7,774 nucleotides of DNA from a virus (IMGVR_UViG_3300048920_000286:1-7774), one strand, 5' to 3'; counted from the first letter of the stretch, positions 1 through 7,774 are shown. A program made the numbers and translations. The notes: a model not told the origin generated them from the letters alone.

Positions 1-127
1 GCCTGATGCACGCCTCCGCACGCCGCACCGAAATGGCCTCAGAGGCCATGCAGCGCAATAAGCGCGCGTCGGGTGCTTCTCTCAAATCCTACCTCGCGGC
101 GGCACCGATCGCGTTGACCCCGGAGGG
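1..127. repeat. Terminal redundancy, left copy (identical to 7648-7774)
   Basis: Base-by-base comparison: gcctgatgcacgcctccgcacgccgcaccgaaatggcc...gaccccggaggg occurs at both ends in direct orientation. Confidence 0.95.
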
Positions 128-884
128 CCAGCGCGAAGCGCTGGCCCTTGGGCTTGTCCATTACAAAACAAGTGACACCGCGTCGAAGACCGGTCGTCTC
201 TCAATCGAAATCGATCCGCTACAGCAGCGGGCGCAACGGCTGCGCAAGTCCGTAATCACGAGTGCACGACTCCATGACCAAGAAGCGAAGAAGGGATCGA
301 GGCGGGGCAAGTGGTACATGCTCACGCTCACCTACCGAGACGGAAGCCGTAGCGGCCCTCGTGACGTTAGCGAGCTACTTAAACGCATGCGCGGCCACTT
401 CAATCGAACTGTCGCTCGGCTCCGACGGCTCACGGGTCAAGTGTTCCGTTACCTGTGGGTGGGCGAACTCACCCAGCGCGGATGGCCCCACTACCACCTC
501 CTGATTTGGGTTCCGCAAGGCATGTGGTTTGGCCGCGTCGATCACAGGCAGTGGTGGCCGCACGGATCCAGCAAGTTCGAAGAGGCCCGCAACGCTGTCG
601 GGTATCTCGCAAAGTACGCATCGAAGTTCAGCAGCGTGATGGCTGCTGCATTTCCGAAGGGGTTCCGCACGCACGGTTGCGGCGGGCTCAATGAAGAATC
701 CCGCCGCGAACTGCGGTGGTGGAAAGCGCCCATCTCTGCACGCGAAGCGCTCGGCGGTGAAGCCGACATCCGTAAGTGCCAGGGCGGTTATTTCGACAAG
801 CTCACCGGGGAGTTCTGGTCGTCCCCGTGGCGAGTGACATTCGCATTCGGCCGGACTATCGCTTGGAAGGTAATCCCACTATGA
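1..884 (+). CDS. Rolling-circle replication initiator (HUH Rep), C-terminal part of the 345-aa protein that begins at 7494
   Basis: In frame with position 3; the first in-window ATG is at 6. HUH motif PHYHLLIW has HYH at 489-497. The two-tyrosine motif YLAKYASK is at 603-626. The sequence WYMLTLTY lies upstream. The stop overlaps the next start (ATGA at 881-884). Confidence 0.9.
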
Positions 885-1177
885 AAGTTGAAATCATCAG
901 CGAGAACATCGCCGTTCGTTCGTTCCCCGCACGCGAAGGCAAGGCCGCAACGGTCTTCCGGGAGCAGAAAGCAGCCATCGTCCGCCCGGGCGACTTCCCG
1001 CTGCCGTTCACCGTTGGTCTCGATGAAGACCAGCAGCCCTACAAGATCGGGACCTACGACCTGTGCCCGACCTCGTTGCAGAACAACAAATTCGGCGGTC
1101 TGGAGTTTGGTCGCCGTATTCGACTGCTGAACCCGTCGCCCACTCCCGGCCCGGCCCCGGTCAAGCCGCAACCGTAA
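881..1177 (+). CDS. ssDNA-binding protein, Ff gene V protein-like (98 aa)
   Basis: [10 protein letters not shown]... parallels Ff gVp [25 protein letters not shown]...[15 protein letters not shown] parallels gVp LDEGQPAYAPGLYTV...FGSLMIDRLRLVP. A GGAAGG SD lies upstream. The start ATG 881 overlaps the Rep stop. The track ORF 776..1177 is the same frame with a spurious upstream extension. Confidence 0.9.
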
Positions 1178-1776: not shown

Positions 1777-3158
1777 TCGCAGTACAGATCGCGGCAGCGT
1801 TCCTATTGACGTTGCTACCTCACTTCGCGTCTGCTCAGACTTACGCCGACGAGGGCGCTGCGTATGCCGCCTGTGTTCCGGTTGCTGCAGCGGCCGTGGC
1901 CTCGAACACGAACCTTCGTCGCAACCCGATTTGCCGTAAGCGCGACGCAACGGGAACCGATACACCAAAGTCGTACTGGGCATGTTTCAACTATCGCAAC
2001 AGCACCACGCTGCCGTGGGTCAGCGGTGTAGCTTGCACTCAGAGATTCGATTTCAAGGACGGTTGTTCCAGCCGTCCTGCGTATACCGGCGTTGGCCCGT
2101 GGTCTTCCGGCGGCGGCTCCGCACGCAACGGCAGTCTCGGTTGCCAGAATGGGTGCGACGGCGTTTGGTATAGCAACGCCGATAACTCCATGACTTTCAA
2201 CGTCACCGGTGATCTGTGCCCGAACGATGAAAAGAGCAACTGCGAGCACATGCCCGATGGCTACTACTGGAACGCCGCACTAAACGTTTGCGAGCCGCCT
2301 GAGGGTAAGTGCCCGCAGGGAAGGTCGCCTAACTCACTCGGCAAATGCGAGCCTGAGCCGTGCCCGGCCGGCAAGATCATGCAAGCTGATGGCACCTGCA
2401 AGAACAAGGACAACGAATGCCCCGCAGGGCAGATCAGGTCGCCTGACGGCAAGTGCTTGCCCGGCGACGGCCAGTGTGCCCAGGGCGAAGTGCGTGGCAA
2501 GGATGGAACCTGCAAAAAGGACCGTGACGGCGACGGCAATCCTGATGAGGGGGAGGAGGGCGGCGAGGGGTCTGACGGCAAGAAGAAAGATGAATTCTCA
2601 GGCGGCGATGACTGCAAGACGCCCCCGACTTGCAGCGGCTCTCCGATCATGTGCGGGCAGGCGCGAATCCAATGGCGCATCGATTGCAACACCCGCAAGA
2701 ACCGCAACGTCGCTGGGGGCACCTGCAACACACTCCCGGTTTGCACCGGGGAGAAGTGTGACGCTCTTGAATACAGCGGGCTTCTCATGCAGTGGCGTAC
2801 TGCGTGTGCCACTGAGAAGCTTGCCCAGGGTAACAACGGCAACGGGGGCGCTCAGCCGGAATGGACCAAGGTCGGCGGAATGTCCACGGATCCCGGTGCA
2901 GGAGCATCACCTGATGATCTGAAGGTACTGAGCACAAAGACGATAAGCGTCTCTGACCTCGATCAGTCCGGCATCGGCGGCGGAGGCTCATGTATGGGCT
3001 TCGCCTCCGGCGGCAGCAATGGCATCACTTCTGGGTTCATGTCGGCCATCTCCACGCCGCCGCCTTTTTTCTGCCAGTACATCGCGCAGATCAAGGCGCT
3101 GATCATCACTATTGCTGCGGTCGCCGCGGCTGTCATCCTCGCGCGAGGTGGTAACTAA
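1755..3158 (+). CDS. pIII-like minor coat / host-adsorption protein, Cys-rich secreted protein with C-terminal membrane anchor (467 aa)
   Basis: Signal peptide ...LLPHFASA|QTY. There are 28 Cys. It contains four tandem C-[PA]-x-G-x6-G-x-C modules, an acidic/Gly-rich linker (DRDGDGNPDEGEEGGEGSDG) and Gly-rich stretches. The C-terminal TM is ALIITIAAVAAAVILA. It sits between the coat gene and the pVI/pI genes. Confidence 0.85.
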   Translation: MARAGWLIAVQIAAAFLLTLLPHFASAQTYADEGAAYAACVPVAAAAVASNTNLRRNPICRKRDATGTDTPKSYWACFNYRNSTTLPWVSGVACTQRFDFKDGCSSRPAYTGVGPWSSGGGSARNGSLGCQNGCDGVWYSNADNSMTFNVTGDLCPNDEKSNCEHMPDGYYWNAALNVCEPPEGKCPQGRSPNSLGKCEPEPCPAGKIMQADGTCKNKDNECPAGQIRSPDGKCLPGDGQCAQGEVRGKDGTCKKDRDGDGNPDEGEEGGEGSDGKKKDEFSGGDDCKTPPTCSGSPIMCGQARIQWRIDCNTRKNRNVAGGTCNTLPVCTGEKCDALEYSGLLMQWRTACATEKLAQGNNGNGGAQPEWTKVGGMSTDPGAGASPDDLKVLSTKTISVSDLDQSGIGGGGSCMGFASGGSNGITSGFMSAISTPPPFFCQYIAQIKALIITIAAVAAAVILARGGN

Positions 3159-3448
3159 TGCCCCAGATCATTGCAGCCCTCGTGGCCCTTCTTGTCTCCG
3201 CTGCGCGACAGTATCTGCCGGGCATCCTCGGCCGCGTCCTGCTCGCATTTGGCATCGGCTTCATCACCCATGAGGTTGCCATGCCGTCGCTCAAATCGTT
3301 GGTCGAGTCGAAGTTCGGCGCGCTTCCACCGGTCCTTCAGGCGTACTGGGGTGCCACTGGCATTGGCGTTGCCGTGACCATGATCCTGTCTGCATGGATT
3401 GCCGGTCGCGCGCAGAAGGCCGTCCTGAGCAAGCTGGGGACCAAGTAA
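3158..3448 (+). CDS. pVI-like small hydrophobic virion/assembly protein (96 aa)
   Basis: TAATG overlap with the pIII-like stop and a GAGGTGG SD. It has two to three hydrophobic helices. Its position immediately upstream of the Zot/pI gene is typical of inoviruses. The functional call rests on position and hydropathy only. Confidence 0.75.
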   Translation: MPQIIAALVALLVSAARQYLPGILGRVLLAFGIGFITHEVAMPSLKSLVESKFGALPPVLQAYWGATGIGVAVTMILSAWIAGRAQKAVLSKLGTK

Positions 3449-4590
3449 TGGCTCTTTACCTTGTAACCGGCCAGCCAGGACACGGCAAAACGGCCTACGC
3501 ACTAGACAAGGCATTCAAGTTCCAGAAGGAGGGGAGGGCGATCTTCGCTCACGGCGTAAAGGACCTCGACTACGCCAAGGCGGGGTGGACGTACGTCGAA
3601 GACCCGAAGAAGTGGGAGCAGCTACCCGACGGCGCTGTCGTCCTGCTCGATGAGTGCTATACCGTTTTCCCGAACCGCAATCCGGGTGCCGCTGTGCCTG
3701 CGCACGTGCAGGCTATGGCTACGCACCGGCATCGCGGCTTTGACTTCATCATGATCGCGCAGCAAGGATTGCAGCTTGATCCGTTTCTACGCGGTCTGTA
3801 CGAAGAGCATGTGCACGTTCGGCAGACGTCGATCATGCGCAGCAAGACAAAGCTCAAGCGCTGGAACCAGTATCAAACGAACGTGCAGGTCAAATGCACC
3901 GACGTGATCGACTGGGTGCGGCCTAAGTACGTATTTGATTACTACACCAGCACCACGCTCGTCACGACAAAGCGAAGCATGCCCATGTGGATGCGGTGGC
4001 TCGTCGTTGCCTTCGTTGTAGTCATCGCGCTCGTTTTCGCAATCAAATGGCAGCTACAGAAAAAGATCGAGGATTACTCGGCCGTTCCTGCCGCCCAGCA
4101 ACCGATGGGCGCTGGACTGCCCGTGACTGCCGCCAGCGAAGCGGGGGCGGGCGCGGGCGGGCCAGTGACCTACGCATCCACCGCTGAGTACGCCAAGGCG
4201 CATTTACCCCGGATCGGGACCATGCCCTGGACAGCGCCAATCTACGACCAGCGCGCCATTACCACCGATCCACAGCTGATCTGCATGTCCAGCATGGAAG
4301 GTCTTGACGGCCACGGTAAGCGCGCGGAGGCGTCCTGCACGTGCCTGACAGAGCAGGGCACGCGTTACGAGCTTTCACAGCCTGAGTGCCGCACCCTTGC
4401 CCGCAACGGCCCGGTCTACAACCCATACAAGACACAGCGGGATTTCTCCGCTGCGCCAAAGCCGCCTGAGTACGTCGCCGAGCCTTTGCCACTTCCATCG
4501 CCGGGCATTACCGGCACCACCGTGCCTGCACCTCAGCGATCCATGGGCACGTTCCCCGAGTCACCGCAGAATCGGTACGACGGCGGCTAG
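3448..4590 (+). CDS. zot: Assembly ATPase pI / zonula occludens toxin (Zot)-family protein (380 aa)
   Basis: Start MALYLVTGQPGHGKT, with Walker A at 3469-3492. Walker B is VVLLDEC at 3637-3657. A central TM (WMRWLVVAFVVVIALVFAI) is followed by a periplasmic C-terminal domain with a Cys-containing ...CTCLTEQGTRYELSQPEC... motif. TAATG overlap with the upstream stop and a GGGGA SD. The track start at 3394 lacks these signals. Confidence 0.92.
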   Translation: MALYLVTGQPGHGKTAYALDKAFKFQKEGRAIFAHGVKDLDYAKAGWTYVEDPKKWEQLPDGAVVLLDECYTVFPNRNPGAAVPAHVQAMATHRHRGFDFIMIAQQGLQLDPFLRGLYEEHVHVRQTSIMRSKTKLKRWNQYQTNVQVKCTDVIDWVRPKYVFDYYTSTTLVTTKRSMPMWMRWLVVAFVVVIALVFAIKWQLQKKIEDYSAVPAAQQPMGAGLPVTAASEAGAGAGGPVTYASTAEYAKAHLPRIGTMPWTAPIYDQRAITTDPQLICMSSMEGLDGHGKRAEASCTCLTEQGTRYELSQPECRTLARNGPVYNPYKTQRDFSAAPKPPEYVAEPLPLPSPGITGTTVPAPQRSMGTFPESPQNRYDGG

Positions 4591-5220: not shown

Positions 5221-5469
5221 ATGGCTTGGTACGTCGATCCGGCACACGTTTTTCACGTCAACAGTGACCATGTCTCTTGGAGTACGCAGAACGGGCCGGG
5301 GGCACTAGTCGCGCACTCTGGCATCTATCGCTGCGGGGGGTGTAATAAGGAAGTCACGTGTAATGCTGGTGATCATTTCCCGCCTCAGAACCACCATCAA
5401 CACACCATCCTCGCTGGAGGACCCGTTCGTTGGCAGCTGCTTGTCGCTACCAACACCGAGGGCAGATAA
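5221..5469 (+). CDS. Hypothetical small protein with CxxC plus His-rich (HHxH) putative metal-binding motif (82 aa)
   Basis: ...SGIYRCGGCNKEVTCNAGDHFPPQNHHQHT... looks like a degenerate zinc-ribbon knuckle. The SD is weak. Hand-counted GC3 is about 60%, against about 84% for the coat gene. It is divergent from the 147-aa gene. Confidence 0.5.
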   Translation: MAWYVDPAHVFHVNSDHVSWSTQNGPGALVAHSGIYRCGGCNKEVTCNAGDHFPPQNHHQHTILAGGPVRWQLLVATNTEGR

Positions 5470-5487
5470 CCTCCCGCTGACTGGGCG

Positions 5488-5519
5488 CTGTCATTGTTGG
5501 TTGCTGCCAGCAATGACAG
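5488..5519. other. Long stem-loop (13-bp stem, 1 mismatch)
   Basis: ctgtcattgttgg (5488-5500) pairs with ccagcaatgacag (5507-5519) around a 6-nt loop. It starts 19 nt after the ORF82 stop. There is no U-tract, so it is not a classical intrinsic terminator. Confidence 0.6.
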
Positions 5520-5550
5520 TTCTGGATCCTGCGGCAAGCTCGTGCGGGGT

Positions 5551-5569
5551 GTAGGGGCAGCGCCCCTAC
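5551..5569. other. GC-rich stem-loop between convergent genes
   Basis: gtaggggc (5551-5558) pairs with gcccctac (5562-5569) around a 3-nt loop. It lies between the 3' ends of ORF82 (+) and the DUF3653-like gene (-). Confidence 0.6.
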
Positions 5570-5579
5570 GAGTGCGCTT

Positions 5580-5843
5580 TCATCCGGCAGACCGTCCGAA
5601 GTGCCGGTCCCGGAAGTCGCCCAGGTCTACAACGACGACCTTGACCATCTGGCGCTGACCGGCTTTTCGCTGTCCGGCCTCGGCCTTGCGCCGGGAGGCG
5701 AACCCGGCGACCCTGAGTTCCATCTGATCGCGCCACGCCAGCCCGGCAATCCGTTCGGGGGTCATGCGGTCGCCGTCAGGGCTGACTAGGTAGTTGCCTC
5801 TGACGCTCCAGCCCGCGAAGGGGCCGGTCAGGTACTGGCACAT
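5580..5843 (-). CDS. DUF3653-like phage protein (87 aa)
   Basis: The N-terminal LTGPFAGWSVRGNYLVSPDGDRMTPERI matches my recollection of the conserved GW..RG..LV.P.G core of DUF3653 proteins from proteobacterial filamentous prophages. This is recalled from memory, not searched. It overlaps the repressor 3' end by 16 nt. Confidence 0.65.
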   Translation of the reverse strand: MCQYLTGPFAGWSVRGNYLVSPDGDRMTPERIAGLAWRDQMELRVAGFASRRKAEAGQRKAGQRQMVKVVVVDLGDFRDRHFGRSAG

Positions 5844-6301
5844 GCATCAATGCTCGCTTTGTCCTTGGAACCACGGAGAGGCAAGAGCGATGCCAGCACC
5901 AGCTTAAGCAGGCCCAGGTAGTACCGGCCTGCGTTTAACATAATATACATTCCGGCCTTGGCCGATCCCGGCGAAGCCGTTGCAGCAGTAGGCGTCGCGC
6001 CGAGTCCAACGGCGATCAGCGCCAACATCGCCACGCTCGCCAGCTTTTGCGCAATTCGACTCCAAGCCGCCTTTTCATCGGCTGAGTTGCTGCGCTCGGC
6101 CATCACCACGGCCGACCACATTTCCGGACTGTCGCCGATGTCAACGGCCATACGTTCGACGTAGTGTATTTCCGCGTTTTTCCCTTGTTTCCAGAGGGAA
6201 ACCGTCGCGCGCGACACACCCAATGCGATAGCTCCAGCGTTGTCACTCTGGATTTTCTGCACGTGCTTCCACCGGCAGAAAAGGTCGTAGCTGGCGCTCA
6301 T
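5828..6301 (-). CDS. HTH (Cro/CI, XRE-like) transcriptional repressor with hydrophobic C-terminal segment (157 aa)
   Basis: The helix-turn-helix is SDNAGAIALGVSRATVSLWKQGKN. The gene is divergent from the rightward TTGACA promoter-like elements in 6302-6450. The C-terminal half contains the TM-like segment ASVAMLALIAVGLGA. A dif-like site is embedded at codons about 115-123. Confidence 0.85.
   Translation of the reverse strand: MSASYDLFCRWKHVQKIQSDNAGAIALGVSRATVSLWKQGKNAEIHYVERMAVDIGDSPEMWSAVVMAERSNSADEKAAWSRIAQKLASVAMLALIAVGLGATPTAATASPGSAKAGMYIMLNAGRYYLGLLKLVLASLLPLRGSKDKASIDACAST
5933..5960 (-). other. dif-like XerC/XerD recombination site (candidate attP)
   Basis: The - strand reads CAAGGCCGGAA-TGTATA-TTATGTTAAAC. 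The central TGTATA matches E. coli dif 6/6 and the XerD arm TTATGTTAAAT matches 10/11. The XerC arm is degenerate (4/11). It is an AT-rich island in GC-rich DNA, and no integrase gene is present. Confidence 0.6.
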
Positions 6302-6450
6302 TGTCGATACCTACTTGACAGGGGTGTATAGGGGTACTTTACAGTTCGCCCCGGTGTCGAGGAATGCTTGACACCACCCCGTCCCGGCTCCCCTAGGCCG
6401 TGGCGGGGGTTCTAGGGGGCTAGGGAGAGGGAAGCTTCGTGATCGCAAAG
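6302..6450. promoter_or_regulatory. Repeat-rich intergenic switch region (candidate operators/promoters, possibly origin or packaging structure)
   Basis: CTTGACA occurs twice (6314-6320 and 6367-6373). A rightward promoter is possible: TTGACA 6315-6320, a 19-nt spacer, TACAGT 6340-6345. GGGGTGT (6321-6327) faces an inverted GGGGTGGTGT (complement of 6371-6380). A GC-rich hairpin spans 6377-6388/6397-6408 (10/12 WC pairs). CTAGG occurs four times between 6393 and 6455. Confidence 0.5.
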
Positions 6451-7119
6451 CTAGGTCAACTTCATCCCCTCGATGTGCGGCAGCAACCGGTCAATGGATC
6501 TGTCCAGGTCTCTTATGTCCTTCAAGACGGAAACAAGATATCCAAGCTTTCTGACCTGAACACGCTGGCCCCAATTGTGCTCTGGGTCTCGGAAACGCGC
6601 ATTGATGTGCAGAAAGCGAATGCACCGATACTCCACGTCATACAGCGCGGCAACTCCTTCCTCGTCCAACAAAAATCGCTCGCCGTCAGTCCAGTTGACC
6701 AATCGCACGGCCTGTTCGCTGGCGTCAAGAGCTCCGTAGATGCTTCCGACAAGGCGCTTAGATACTGGGCGCTGAAAGAGACGCGTGAATCGCCTCCGTG
6801 GCGTCCTGAGCATCTGCGCCTTTGCCATCAGCAATTGCCTTCGGCCTCGCAATTCTCGCTCGCGATCCGACAACTCGATCTGCCTCTGTTTTCGGTGCTG
6901 GATGCGTTCCTCGTGGGCATAGGCCACCGCAGCAATGCCGATCACCCAAGTTCCGGCAGCTCCAAACCAATCCGCGCCGCTGCCAAGGTCTTCTTCGATG
7001 AGGAAGCCACCCGGTGCCCAAAGAACCAAGCTCCCCAGTACAAGTACAAGAATTGCGCATGTCATAGCCAGAATTCTGGTTCTGGAGAAGTGCCATTCAC
7101 GTTTGGCCACAGAACTCAT
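6451..7119 (-). CDS. Hypothetical two-TM membrane protein with charged helical linker and soluble C-terminal domain (222 aa); accessory 'moron' candidate
   Basis: ATG 7119 is preceded by a strong SD (GGGAGGGAG, 5-nt spacer). The two clean TM helices are ILAMTCAILVLVLGSLVLWA and WFGAAGTWVIGIAAVAYA. They are followed by HEERIQHRKQRQIELSDRERELRGRR and a domain of about 120 aa. Three hand-counted 60-nt rows give 47-58% GC, against about 67% in a coat-gene row. I recognise no family. Confidence 0.7.
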   Translation of the reverse strand: MSSVAKREWHFSRTRILAMTCAILVLVLGSLVLWAPGGFLIEEDLGSGADWFGAAGTWVIGIAAVAYAHEERIQHRKQRQIELSDRERELRGRRQLLMAKAQMLRTPRRRFTRLFQRPVSKRLVGSIYGALDASEQAVRLVNWTDGERFLLDEEGVAALYDVEYRCIRFLHINARFRDPEHNWGQRVQVRKLGYLVSVLKDIRDLDRSIDRLLPHIEGMKLT

Positions 7120-7497: not shown

Positions 7498-7774
7498 GCG
7501 GCCATTGCAATTTCTGCGGCGAGCCGACCGTCTATTTCTTCGCAGGCGGTCTTTGTGCTGCCTGTGCCGGCAAGAACGCCCGCATCAAGCTCGAAGGGAT
7601 GACGCCTGCGCCGCGTCCTGAGCTTGCAGCGTTCGATGACGCCATCGGCCTGATGCACGCCTCCGCACGCCGCACCGAAATGGCCTCAGAGGCCATGCAG
7701 CGCAATAAGCGCGCGTCGGGTGCTTCTCTCAAATCCTACCTCGCGGCGGCACCGATCGCGTTGACCCCGGAGGG
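7494..7774 (+). CDS. Rolling-circle replication initiator (pII/RstA-like HUH endonuclease), N-terminal part; continues across the circular junction into 1..884
   Basis: ATG at 7494 overlaps the upstream stop (ATGA). It is open to the window end and in the same frame as the copy of the 6..884 ORF (ATG 7653 = ATG 6). Translation starts MSGHCNFCGEPTVYFFAGGLCAACAGKN, a CxxC-x12-CxxC zinc-ribbon-like motif. It is absent from the supplied ORF track because no stop is reached. Confidence 0.85.
   Translation, partial: MSGHCNFCGEPTVYFFAGGLCAACAGKNARIKLEGMTPAPRPELAAFDDAIGLMHASARRTEMASEAMQRNKRASGASLKSYLAAAPIALTPE
7648..7774. repeat. Terminal redundancy, right copy (identical to 1-127)
   Basis: Same 127-nt string as nt 1-127. 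It lies inside the Rep coding frame, so it is the signature of a circular contig rather than a biological LTR. Confidence 0.95.

Follow-up and report, generated by a model that had tools for sequence, protein, structure and literature searches.

Integration by imitation of the chromosomal dif site is a well-known phage strategy, and reviews divide the elements that use it (IMEXs) into three mechanistic classes, none of them without a XerC arm. Placement of such a site inside an open reading frame has likewise been published, for φRSS0, XacF1 and φLf. In φRSS0, attP lies within ORF13, which integration shortens from 156 to 130 amino acids, and the long and short forms of the protein have been suggested to differ functionally (Yamada 2013, PMC3816273). 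In XacF1, it lies inside ORF12, a putative regulator, and both attL and attR have been determined (Ahmad 2014, PMC4076744); the GenBank records of φLf-UK and Xf109 annotate attP inside a DUF3693 gene, and for XacF1 and φLf integration at dif has been shown experimentally, by junction PCR. Earlier work has also dealt with proteins encoded next to such sites. XafT, which joins an HTH to a DUF3653 domain, activates XerD (Midonet 2019, PMC6744903), and DUF3653 genes are found beside dif in all Xanthomonadales dif phages, in an orientation to dif that varies by subclass (PMC6744903). The DUF3653 protein of φLf-UK, PSB15, binds the packaging signal, and its loss is without effect on integration (10.1101/2024.03.19.585677). 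XafV has been described as an activator of XerC-initiated reactions (2026 preprint). Finally, Vibrio CTX-I inoviruses and PM2-like double jelly-roll phages carry a repressor-attP-XafT/P15 module whose genes form the prophage termini, and one-armed attPs that keep the XerD-arm half (ATTTAACATAATATAAA) have been reported (PMC12715192).

The locus considered here comes from a 7,774-nt viral sequence (IMGVR_UViG_3300048920_000286:1-7774), the whole of which we call the window. Its positions 1-127 and 7648-7774 form an exact 127-nt terminal direct repeat, the first and second copies of a circular-assembly overlap, which makes the complete genome circular, at 7,647 nt, and puts the site in its episomal attP configuration, with the caveat that an internal junction of a tandem prophage would read identically. 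As judged from its genes, this is an uncultivated filamentous phage (inovirus) of the Stenotrophomonas/Xanthomonas group. It encodes a pII-like rolling-circle replication initiator (6..884, + strand; Pfam REP_ORF2-G2P, E=9e-29; about 75% nucleotide identity to φLf/Cf1c), a pV-like ssDNA-binding protein (884..1177, +; Pfam Phage_DNA_bind, E=4e-28), the assembly ATPase pI/Zot (3394..4590, +; Pfam Zot, E=2.5e-20; 76% nucleotide identity to PSH1), a pVI-like protein, and a large ORF of 467 aa that matches no family and occupies the position of the adsorption protein. A 75-aa ORF (1422-1649), whose sole Pfam match, to TrbC, falls below the curated cutoff, is a candidate for the major coat protein on size and position alone. 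The closest cultured phages are φLf, Cf1c, XacF1 and Xf109 of Xanthomonas and PSH1 and SMA9 of Stenotrophomonas; their nucleotide identity is about 75-85% and confined to short parts. No recombinase domain turned up when every plausible ORF was scanned against Pfam and PHROG, in agreement with the original prediction that neither an integrase nor a serine recombinase would be encoded, and a tRNA scan of the window found no tRNA gene that might serve as an alternative integration target. φRs551 was considered as a precedent; it has its own resolvase and integrates at a tRNA gene, and is therefore irrelevant here.

The site lies in a 157-aa HTH/DUF3693 regulator ORF (5828-6301, - strand). The N-terminal 117 residues of this protein (5951..6301, -), the part that is kept at a prophage end, match Pfam DUF3693 (E=3.3e-11) and PHROG 638, annotated as a transcriptional regulator (E=9e-25); the name 'repressor' that had been given to it agrees with this homology and annotation and goes exactly as far as they do. 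On the minus strand, 5960-5933 read CAAGGCCGGAA TGTATA TTATGTTAAAC, a 28-nt dif-like site composed of a pseudo-XerC arm (5950..5960), the central crossover region TGTATA (5944..5949) and a predicted XerD-binding arm (5933..5943), and this DNA codes for residues M118-Y-I-M-L-N123 of the regulator. Against E. coli dif (GGTGCGCATAA TGTATA TTATGTTAAAT) the XerC arm, core and XerD arm score 4/11, 6/6 and 10/11. The site, these scores and the encoded residues had all been put forward in the original prediction, and a rereading of the sequence reproduces them. The comparison with candidate hosts that it had called for gives 3/11, 6/6 and 10/11 against Xanthomonad dif (ATTTCGCATAA TGTATA TTATGTTAAAT), a sequence taken from Xanthomonas and Stenotrophomonas genomes that may not include the phage's own host.

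An AT-rich patch of this kind, in DNA with a GC content of about 0.605, might have arisen by chance or as a by-product of coding M-Y-I-M-L-N, with no function at the DNA level, and the XerD arm taken by itself is what that explanation would expect: with 2 mismatches allowed it was matched in 66 of 200 shuffles, about a third, which is not significant. The 16-mer TGTATATTATGTTAAA, which spans core and XerD arm and is single-copy in the window, was by contrast matched in none of 200 dinucleotide-preserving shuffles at up to 2 mismatches. The regulator homologues (n=67) tell against chance more directly. Similarity to the window ORF stops at residues 116-125, and past the dif core most prophage-derived regulator proteins run into unrelated sequence. 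A translation of the dif core is found at residues 105-129 in 58 of the 67, in all three frames and both orientations: in the window's orientation as MYIM (n=7), NVYYV (n=4) or CILC (n=1), and in the opposite one as IHYAK (n=23), YIMR (n=16) or YTLCE (n=7). Since the DNA of the core stays constant while the peptide that it encodes varies over frames and orientations, selection acts on the DNA. Together with prophage junctions that fall precisely at the site, described below, these data refute an origin by chance or as a by-product of coding.

Relatives of the phage in their integrated state provided the junctions. A scan of IMG/VR with the 16-mer returned mostly chance matches in AT-rich, unrelated viruses, and only loci that also carry gene homologues of this phage were kept; the junction evidence comes from close and distant relatives, other than this exact genome. 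In six prophages of the window's type (L002, L005, L072, L112, L113 and L145), both junctions lie exactly at the core and beside chromosomal dif arms, where they had been predicted to fall. Closest to the window phage is L002, whose regulator is 98% identical to that of the window and which is integrated in a 325-kb metagenome-assembled bacterial contig. Its left junction (3024-3051) reads ATTTCGCATAA TGTATA TTATGTTAAAC and is followed by the regulator tail and the DUF3653 gene; its right junction (10341-10368) reads CAAGGCCGGAA TGTATA TTATGTAAAGA and follows the N-terminal part of the regulator, which now ends at 121 aa. The left junction has the terminal C of the XerD arm, which is specific to the phage, and the right one has the phage pseudo-arm, a distribution that, read from these sequences, is the outcome expected of a crossover in the central region. 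This terminal C has been retained in the working dif of both L002 and L113, a pseudo-XerC arm identical to that of the window stands at the outer junction of L002, L072 and L112, and TGTATA is invariant across all attL, attR and dif sequences examined. Just outside the right junction of L002, at 10369-11206, another element has left a second tail and DUF3653 gene as well as pieces of o202 and Zot, a layout that fits serial integration into the regenerated dif followed by decay.

These observations outline a route by which the double-stranded replicative form would recombine with chromosomal dif (ATTTCGCATAA TGTATA TTATGT.....) inside the identical 6-bp central region. One product would join the bacterial XerC arm, the core and the phage XerD arm into a complete working dif, followed by the regulator tail and the DUF3653 gene; the other would join the N-terminal part of the regulator, the phage pseudo-arm, the core and the resident XerD arm, with the ORF running on into foreign sequence. 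Recombination within the core and both products can be read directly from the junctions of the relatives. Because attP lies inside the regulator ORF, integration rewrites the C-terminus of the protein. The original prediction had placed the cut at about codon 119, had the DUF3653-like gene carried to the opposite prophage end, and expected the two forms of the phage to differ in their regulator C-termini; we find the cut after about codon 121, the relocated gene in L002, and a regulator that is shortened from 157 aa to 121 aa in L002 and to 149 aa in L005.

A core that matches dif, a genome that encodes no recombinase of its own, and prophages of relatives at chromosomal dif, flanked by dif on one side and a dif-like site on the other, are features of an IMEX, and we put the probability that the site is the attP of an integrase-less inovirus recombining with chromosomal dif at about 0.88. 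One could propose that the site mainly resolves multimers of the replicative form, as cer and psi do for plasmids, and that integration is an occasional by-product; plasmid Xer sites are dif-like too, and the window is itself a circular form. This appears very improbable to us, given the six prophages with both junctions at the core and the decayed remnants found at dif in complete chromosomes. In addition, a need for Xer resolution is not known among rolling-circle replicons of this sort, and the site was found to lack the accessory sequences that are typical of cer and psi. The remnants in question come from the complete chromosome of Stenotrophomonas sp. 364, where L143:9884-10264 and L144:6935-7315 keep only dif, the tail and the DUF3653 gene; to judge from this layout they are decayed prophages of the window's type, whose XerD arm now serves the chromosome.

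As an attP, the site departs from each of the three established classes. The CTXφ type relies on a pair of inverted dif-like sites, brought together by folding of the single-stranded genome; in the window, a search allowing up to 3 mismatches found neither another dif-like site nor an inverted partner, so a folded single-stranded attP of that type is excluded. The VGJφ type has two recognisable arms and core homology on the XerC side only, whereas in the window the XerC arm scores 3/11 and the core 6/6. TLCφ comes closer: its attP, too, is double-stranded, with a single degenerate arm and a core that matches dif in full, and has an HTH plus DUF3653 module next to it, and the single double-stranded site of the window, with TGTATA at 6/6 and without an inverted partner, agrees with its type of core. 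The arms, however, are the wrong way round, since the TLCφ type requires an intact XerC arm and a degenerate XerD arm and the window has 3/11 and 10/11; TLCφ lacks the XerD arm and the window phage the XerC arm. TLCφ is furthermore a satellite, and its HTH and DUF3653 domains are fused as XafT, whereas attP splits them in the window phage. The Vibrio module, too, has a dif-like attP with a repressor on one side and a XafT-like gene on the other, both of which end up as the terminal prophage genes, but there attP lies between the genes rather than inside the regulator ORF.

The nearest arrangement is that of φRSS0, which confirms the RSS-type precedent put forward in the original prediction, an attP inside a repressor-like ORF of about 156 aa. 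Both phages are integrase-less inoviruses in which a reverse-oriented gene for an HTH regulator of about 156 aa contains, towards its 3' end and on the coding strand, a dif-like attP. They also share polarity: the φRSS0 site, CAGGTCAACGA TTTATC TTATGTAAAAT on the coding strand of ORF13, keeps core and XerD arm (10/11), with a XerC arm at 2/11. The two ORFs are 25% identical (E=7e-6), and their alignment ends at the two cores. φRSS0 differs in its beta-proteobacterial host, in its core, TTTATC, and in having no DUF3653 gene annotated downstream, where 6154-6681 carries no annotation. In sequence terms, the window shares with φRSS0 an attP in the 3' third of a regulator of about 156 aa and an ORF that, in the window's prophage relatives, is truncated on integration.

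The original prediction had also named the Xanthomonas Cf-type phages as analogues of the arm pattern, and in this it was wrong. Cf1c, XacF1, φLf/φLf-UK, Xf109, SMA9 and PSH1 do resemble the window phage in their DUF3693 regulator, in the position of the site within that gene, in a DUF3653 gene immediately downstream and in Rep, ssb and Zot. Unlike the window, however, the Cf1c-type phages carry on the coding strand a 15-nt core, TATACATTATGCGAA, that consists of the central region and the XerC arm, and their DUF3653 proteins are longer (108-127 aa) and 32-50% identical to that of the window. An attP of the Cf1c/XacF1/φLf type was rejected for the window on these grounds: the gene family is shared, but core and polarity differ.

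This difference in polarity is systematic. All six cultured Xanthomonas and Stenotrophomonas phages that could be scored (SMA9, PSH1, XacF1, Cf1c, φLf-UK and Xf109) keep the core and 10-11 of the 11 positions of the XerC arm, with 2-4 of 11 in the XerD arm, and the XerC arm is also the one kept in 9/9 of the reference-genome prophages found with the regulator. The mirror polarity, with the XerD arm kept, occurs in the window and in L001, L002, L005, L072, L112, L113, L116 and L145. The window phage therefore imitates the opposite half of dif from its cultured relatives, and dif mimics of either polarity occur within a single family of regulator genes. In both, reading along the gene, the core comes first and the intact arm after it, which means that the two kinds of site are oriented in opposite directions and place their phages on opposite sides of dif; keeping the XerD arm, the window phage inserts on the XerD side. 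The degenerate arms behave differently in the two sets as well. The pseudo-XerC arms of window-type phages have no consistent pattern among them, and 12 of 13 distinct pseudo-XerD arms of Cf1c-type sites (from L007-L015, L128 and L145 together with SMA9, PSH1, XacF1, Cf1c, φLf-UK and Xf109) have G at the fifth innermost position, a base reported to matter for XafT-driven TLCφ integration (PMC9226527).

Chromosomal layouts show, at the level of sequence, that relatives with an intact XerC arm occupy the XerC side and that a single working dif can be shared by the two kinds. In L145, a 4.4-Mb X. fragariae contig in which the site lies at about 56% of the length and bacterial genes continue beyond both junctions, one strand reads from a junction of the XerC-arm type at 3090 through a Cf1c-kind prophage to the sole complete dif at 9991, and on through the tail and DUF3653 gene and a window-kind prophage to a pseudo-XerC-arm junction at 16939. 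The same two-sided layout is found in the complete chromosome of X. translucens CFBP 2541 (L014/L054) and in L128, and in part in L005 and L012. Where prophages of opposite polarity stand head-to-head round one complete dif (L145:3090-16966; L014:3474-10373; L128:6203-14965), both arms of the working dif have been donated by phages.

How the strands are exchanged is a separate matter, for which the gene downstream of the regulator is relevant. A DUF3653 ORF of 87 aa (5580..5843, -; Pfam DUF3653, E=8.9e-7) overlaps the regulator stop by 16 nt and lies 90 nt from attP. Proteins of this subclass, of about 86-87 aa, occur in S. rhizophila, Stenotrophomonas sp. 364, X. translucens, X. euvesicatoria, X. 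phaseoli, X. fragariae and Lysobacter; in cultured phages the tail and DUF3653 module gave no DNA match by blastn, and by tblastn a match in PSH1 only, at 37% protein identity. Its sequence suggests that the protein is either a candidate Xer activator of the XafT family or a PSB15-like binder of the packaging signal. PHROG profiles imply the existence of relatives in which HTH and DUF3653 are fused, which is the architecture of XafT. In Xf409 (L023, 7390-8160; PHROG 25084 and 34897), the two apparently form one protein of about 250-280 aa, and our scan found no dif-like site in that phage. On the other side, the window protein is 38% identical to φLf-UK PSB15 in the N-terminal motif region, where the LTG and TPE motifs are exact and WAGFXF is present as the variant FAGWSV. 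In an AF2 model (pLDDT 77), a hairpin region at the N-terminus is combined with two helices, one long and one short, and the motifs together with this predicted hairpin-helix-helix layout match the description of φLf-UK PSB15. A Foldseek search of the AlphaFold model against viral structures gave one weak unnamed match, which does not separate a XafT-like from a XafV-like protein.

Within the reading of the site as attP, we propose that host XerD would bind the intact arm and recruit XerC cooperatively to the non-cognate arm, and that the 6/6 identity of the cores would permit both strand exchanges. By analogy with TLCφ, the reaction may be of the dimer-resolution kind, initiated by XerD, independent of FtsK and aided by the DUF3653 protein, to which we would give about even odds if the site is attP. 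The idea that the phage hijacks host Xer recombination is to be qualified in this light: host recombination is still used, but the adjacent DUF3653 gene belongs to the XafT family (PMC6744903), and the phage may not merely hijack. The role of an activator is weakened, however, by φLf-UK, in which PSB15 is a binder of the packaging signal and integration was no lower in its absence.

On the same premise, an exchange initiated by XerC has appreciable but clearly lower odds. As a full account, in which the site is an attP used as in VGJφ or CTXφ, the Holliday junction is resolved by replication or by unassisted XerD, and the DUF3653 protein either has no part in recombination, as a PSB15-like packaging factor, or acts on the XerC pathway in the manner of XafV, we regard this as a tentative alternative. 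XerC-first exchange is the default FtsK-independent route in most characterised IMEXs, the φLf-UK result agrees with it, as do the PSB15 motifs and predicted layout of the window protein, and XafV offers the example of a small protein encoded next to attP that boosts XerC-initiated reactions. It would nevertheless require XerC to cleave beside a 3/11 arm that has no conserved pattern among window-type phages, it sits poorly with a core at 6/6, since VGJφ-type sites match dif on the XerC side only, and the PSB15 data come from phages of the opposite polarity. Because phage and host cores are identical everywhere, the junctions carry no record of the order of strand exchange.

The fate of the regulator tail follows from the position of the site as attP. 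The tail (AGRYYLGLLKLVLASLLPLRGSKDKASIDACAST and stop; 5828..5932, -) is detached on integration and moved to the other prophage end, where it stands after the working dif in L002, L005, L012, L014, L072, L108, L112, L113, L143 and L145. In all elements of the window's kind the conserved sequence RYYxGLLKLxLAS(L/I)LP...IDAC(A/V)S(T/I), ending in a stop, comes after the XerD arm; it is joined to the core in three frames, through linkers of varying length. In every case, the frame of the tail is that of its cognate regulator N-terminal part. Since it matches the regulator frame at the other prophage end, excision would rebuild one long ORF. This co-variation of frame is the sole support for a coding significance of the tail, which we regard as partly supported. 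A crude pN/pS of about 1.08 gives no substitution support for protein-level constraint or for a functional difference between regulator isoforms, and the 3' half of the tail is nearly invariant as DNA. The dif core itself brings in-frame ATG codons (ATG TAT ATT ATG; window 5933-5950, -; L002:3034-3051), and the detached tail ORF at the left prophage junction could thus still be translated from within dif. Integration also separates the DUF3653 gene from the transcription unit of the regulator, so regulation probably differs between the episomal and integrated forms. A promoter and terminator scan of 5400-6500 found no promoter-like sites and a single terminator-like hairpin, which overlaps the pseudo-arm and occurs at the frequency expected by chance, and hence supplies no evidence on transcription units.

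These data add to the published in-ORF sites an uncultivated example, from the Stenotrophomonas/Xanthomonas group, of φRSS0-like polarity within the Cf1c-type regulator family, together with evidence, at the level of sequence, that the side of insertion is set by polarity and that one working dif can be flanked by both kinds. Taken further, the attPs without a XerC arm, in the window phage, its prophage relatives and φRSS0, might constitute a fourth, mirror-image form of Xer exploitation outside the CTXφ/VGJφ/TLCφ scheme, with dif built from phage-donated arms and a lysogeny switch operated by recombination. As a whole this reading is speculative and we think it rather unlikely; its structural half can be read from the junctions and layouts above, and mechanistic distinctness and the switch are proposals. 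If it were true, the phage would contribute the XerD arm only, colonise the XerD side and coexist with phages lacking that arm on the opposite side; many Xanthomonas and Stenotrophomonas chromosomes would have a working dif made up entirely of phage-donated arms; and integration would split a XafT-like HTH/DUF3653 module while exchanging the C-terminus of the regulator. The related phages make it possible to test how Xer acts on a one-armed site, whether DUF3653 subclass goes with the order in which strands are exchanged, and whether the host's chromosome-dimer resolution site is kept up by arms that phages have donated. More practically, a defined attP, both junction types and a set of prophage relatives should aid the annotation of prophage boundaries in Stenotrophomonas and Xanthomonas, genera with clinical and plant pathogens among their members.

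Several of these loci had further features. L008 (JBJNRH010000003.1, titled Nocardiopsis yanglingensis A18) is a Stenotrophomonas-type prophage in an assembly labelled as an actinomycete; its junction is that of SMA9, L007 and L009, and it probably reflects contamination or mislabelling. Abutting the outer junction of L005, at 10800-18960, is a defence island adjoining dif, in which an integrase fragment and an FRG-domain gene accompany a CBASS-like cluster (patatin, DncV-like nucleotidyltransferase, ThiF/E1 and JAB) and a BrxR-like regulator. In the window itself, a 222-aa ORF (6451-7119, -) lies upstream of the regulator on the same strand and has no significant family match. Its GC content is 0.52-0.56 against about 0.61, and L002 and L003 have a 26%-identical homologue in the corresponding position; the ORF may represent an accessory gene.
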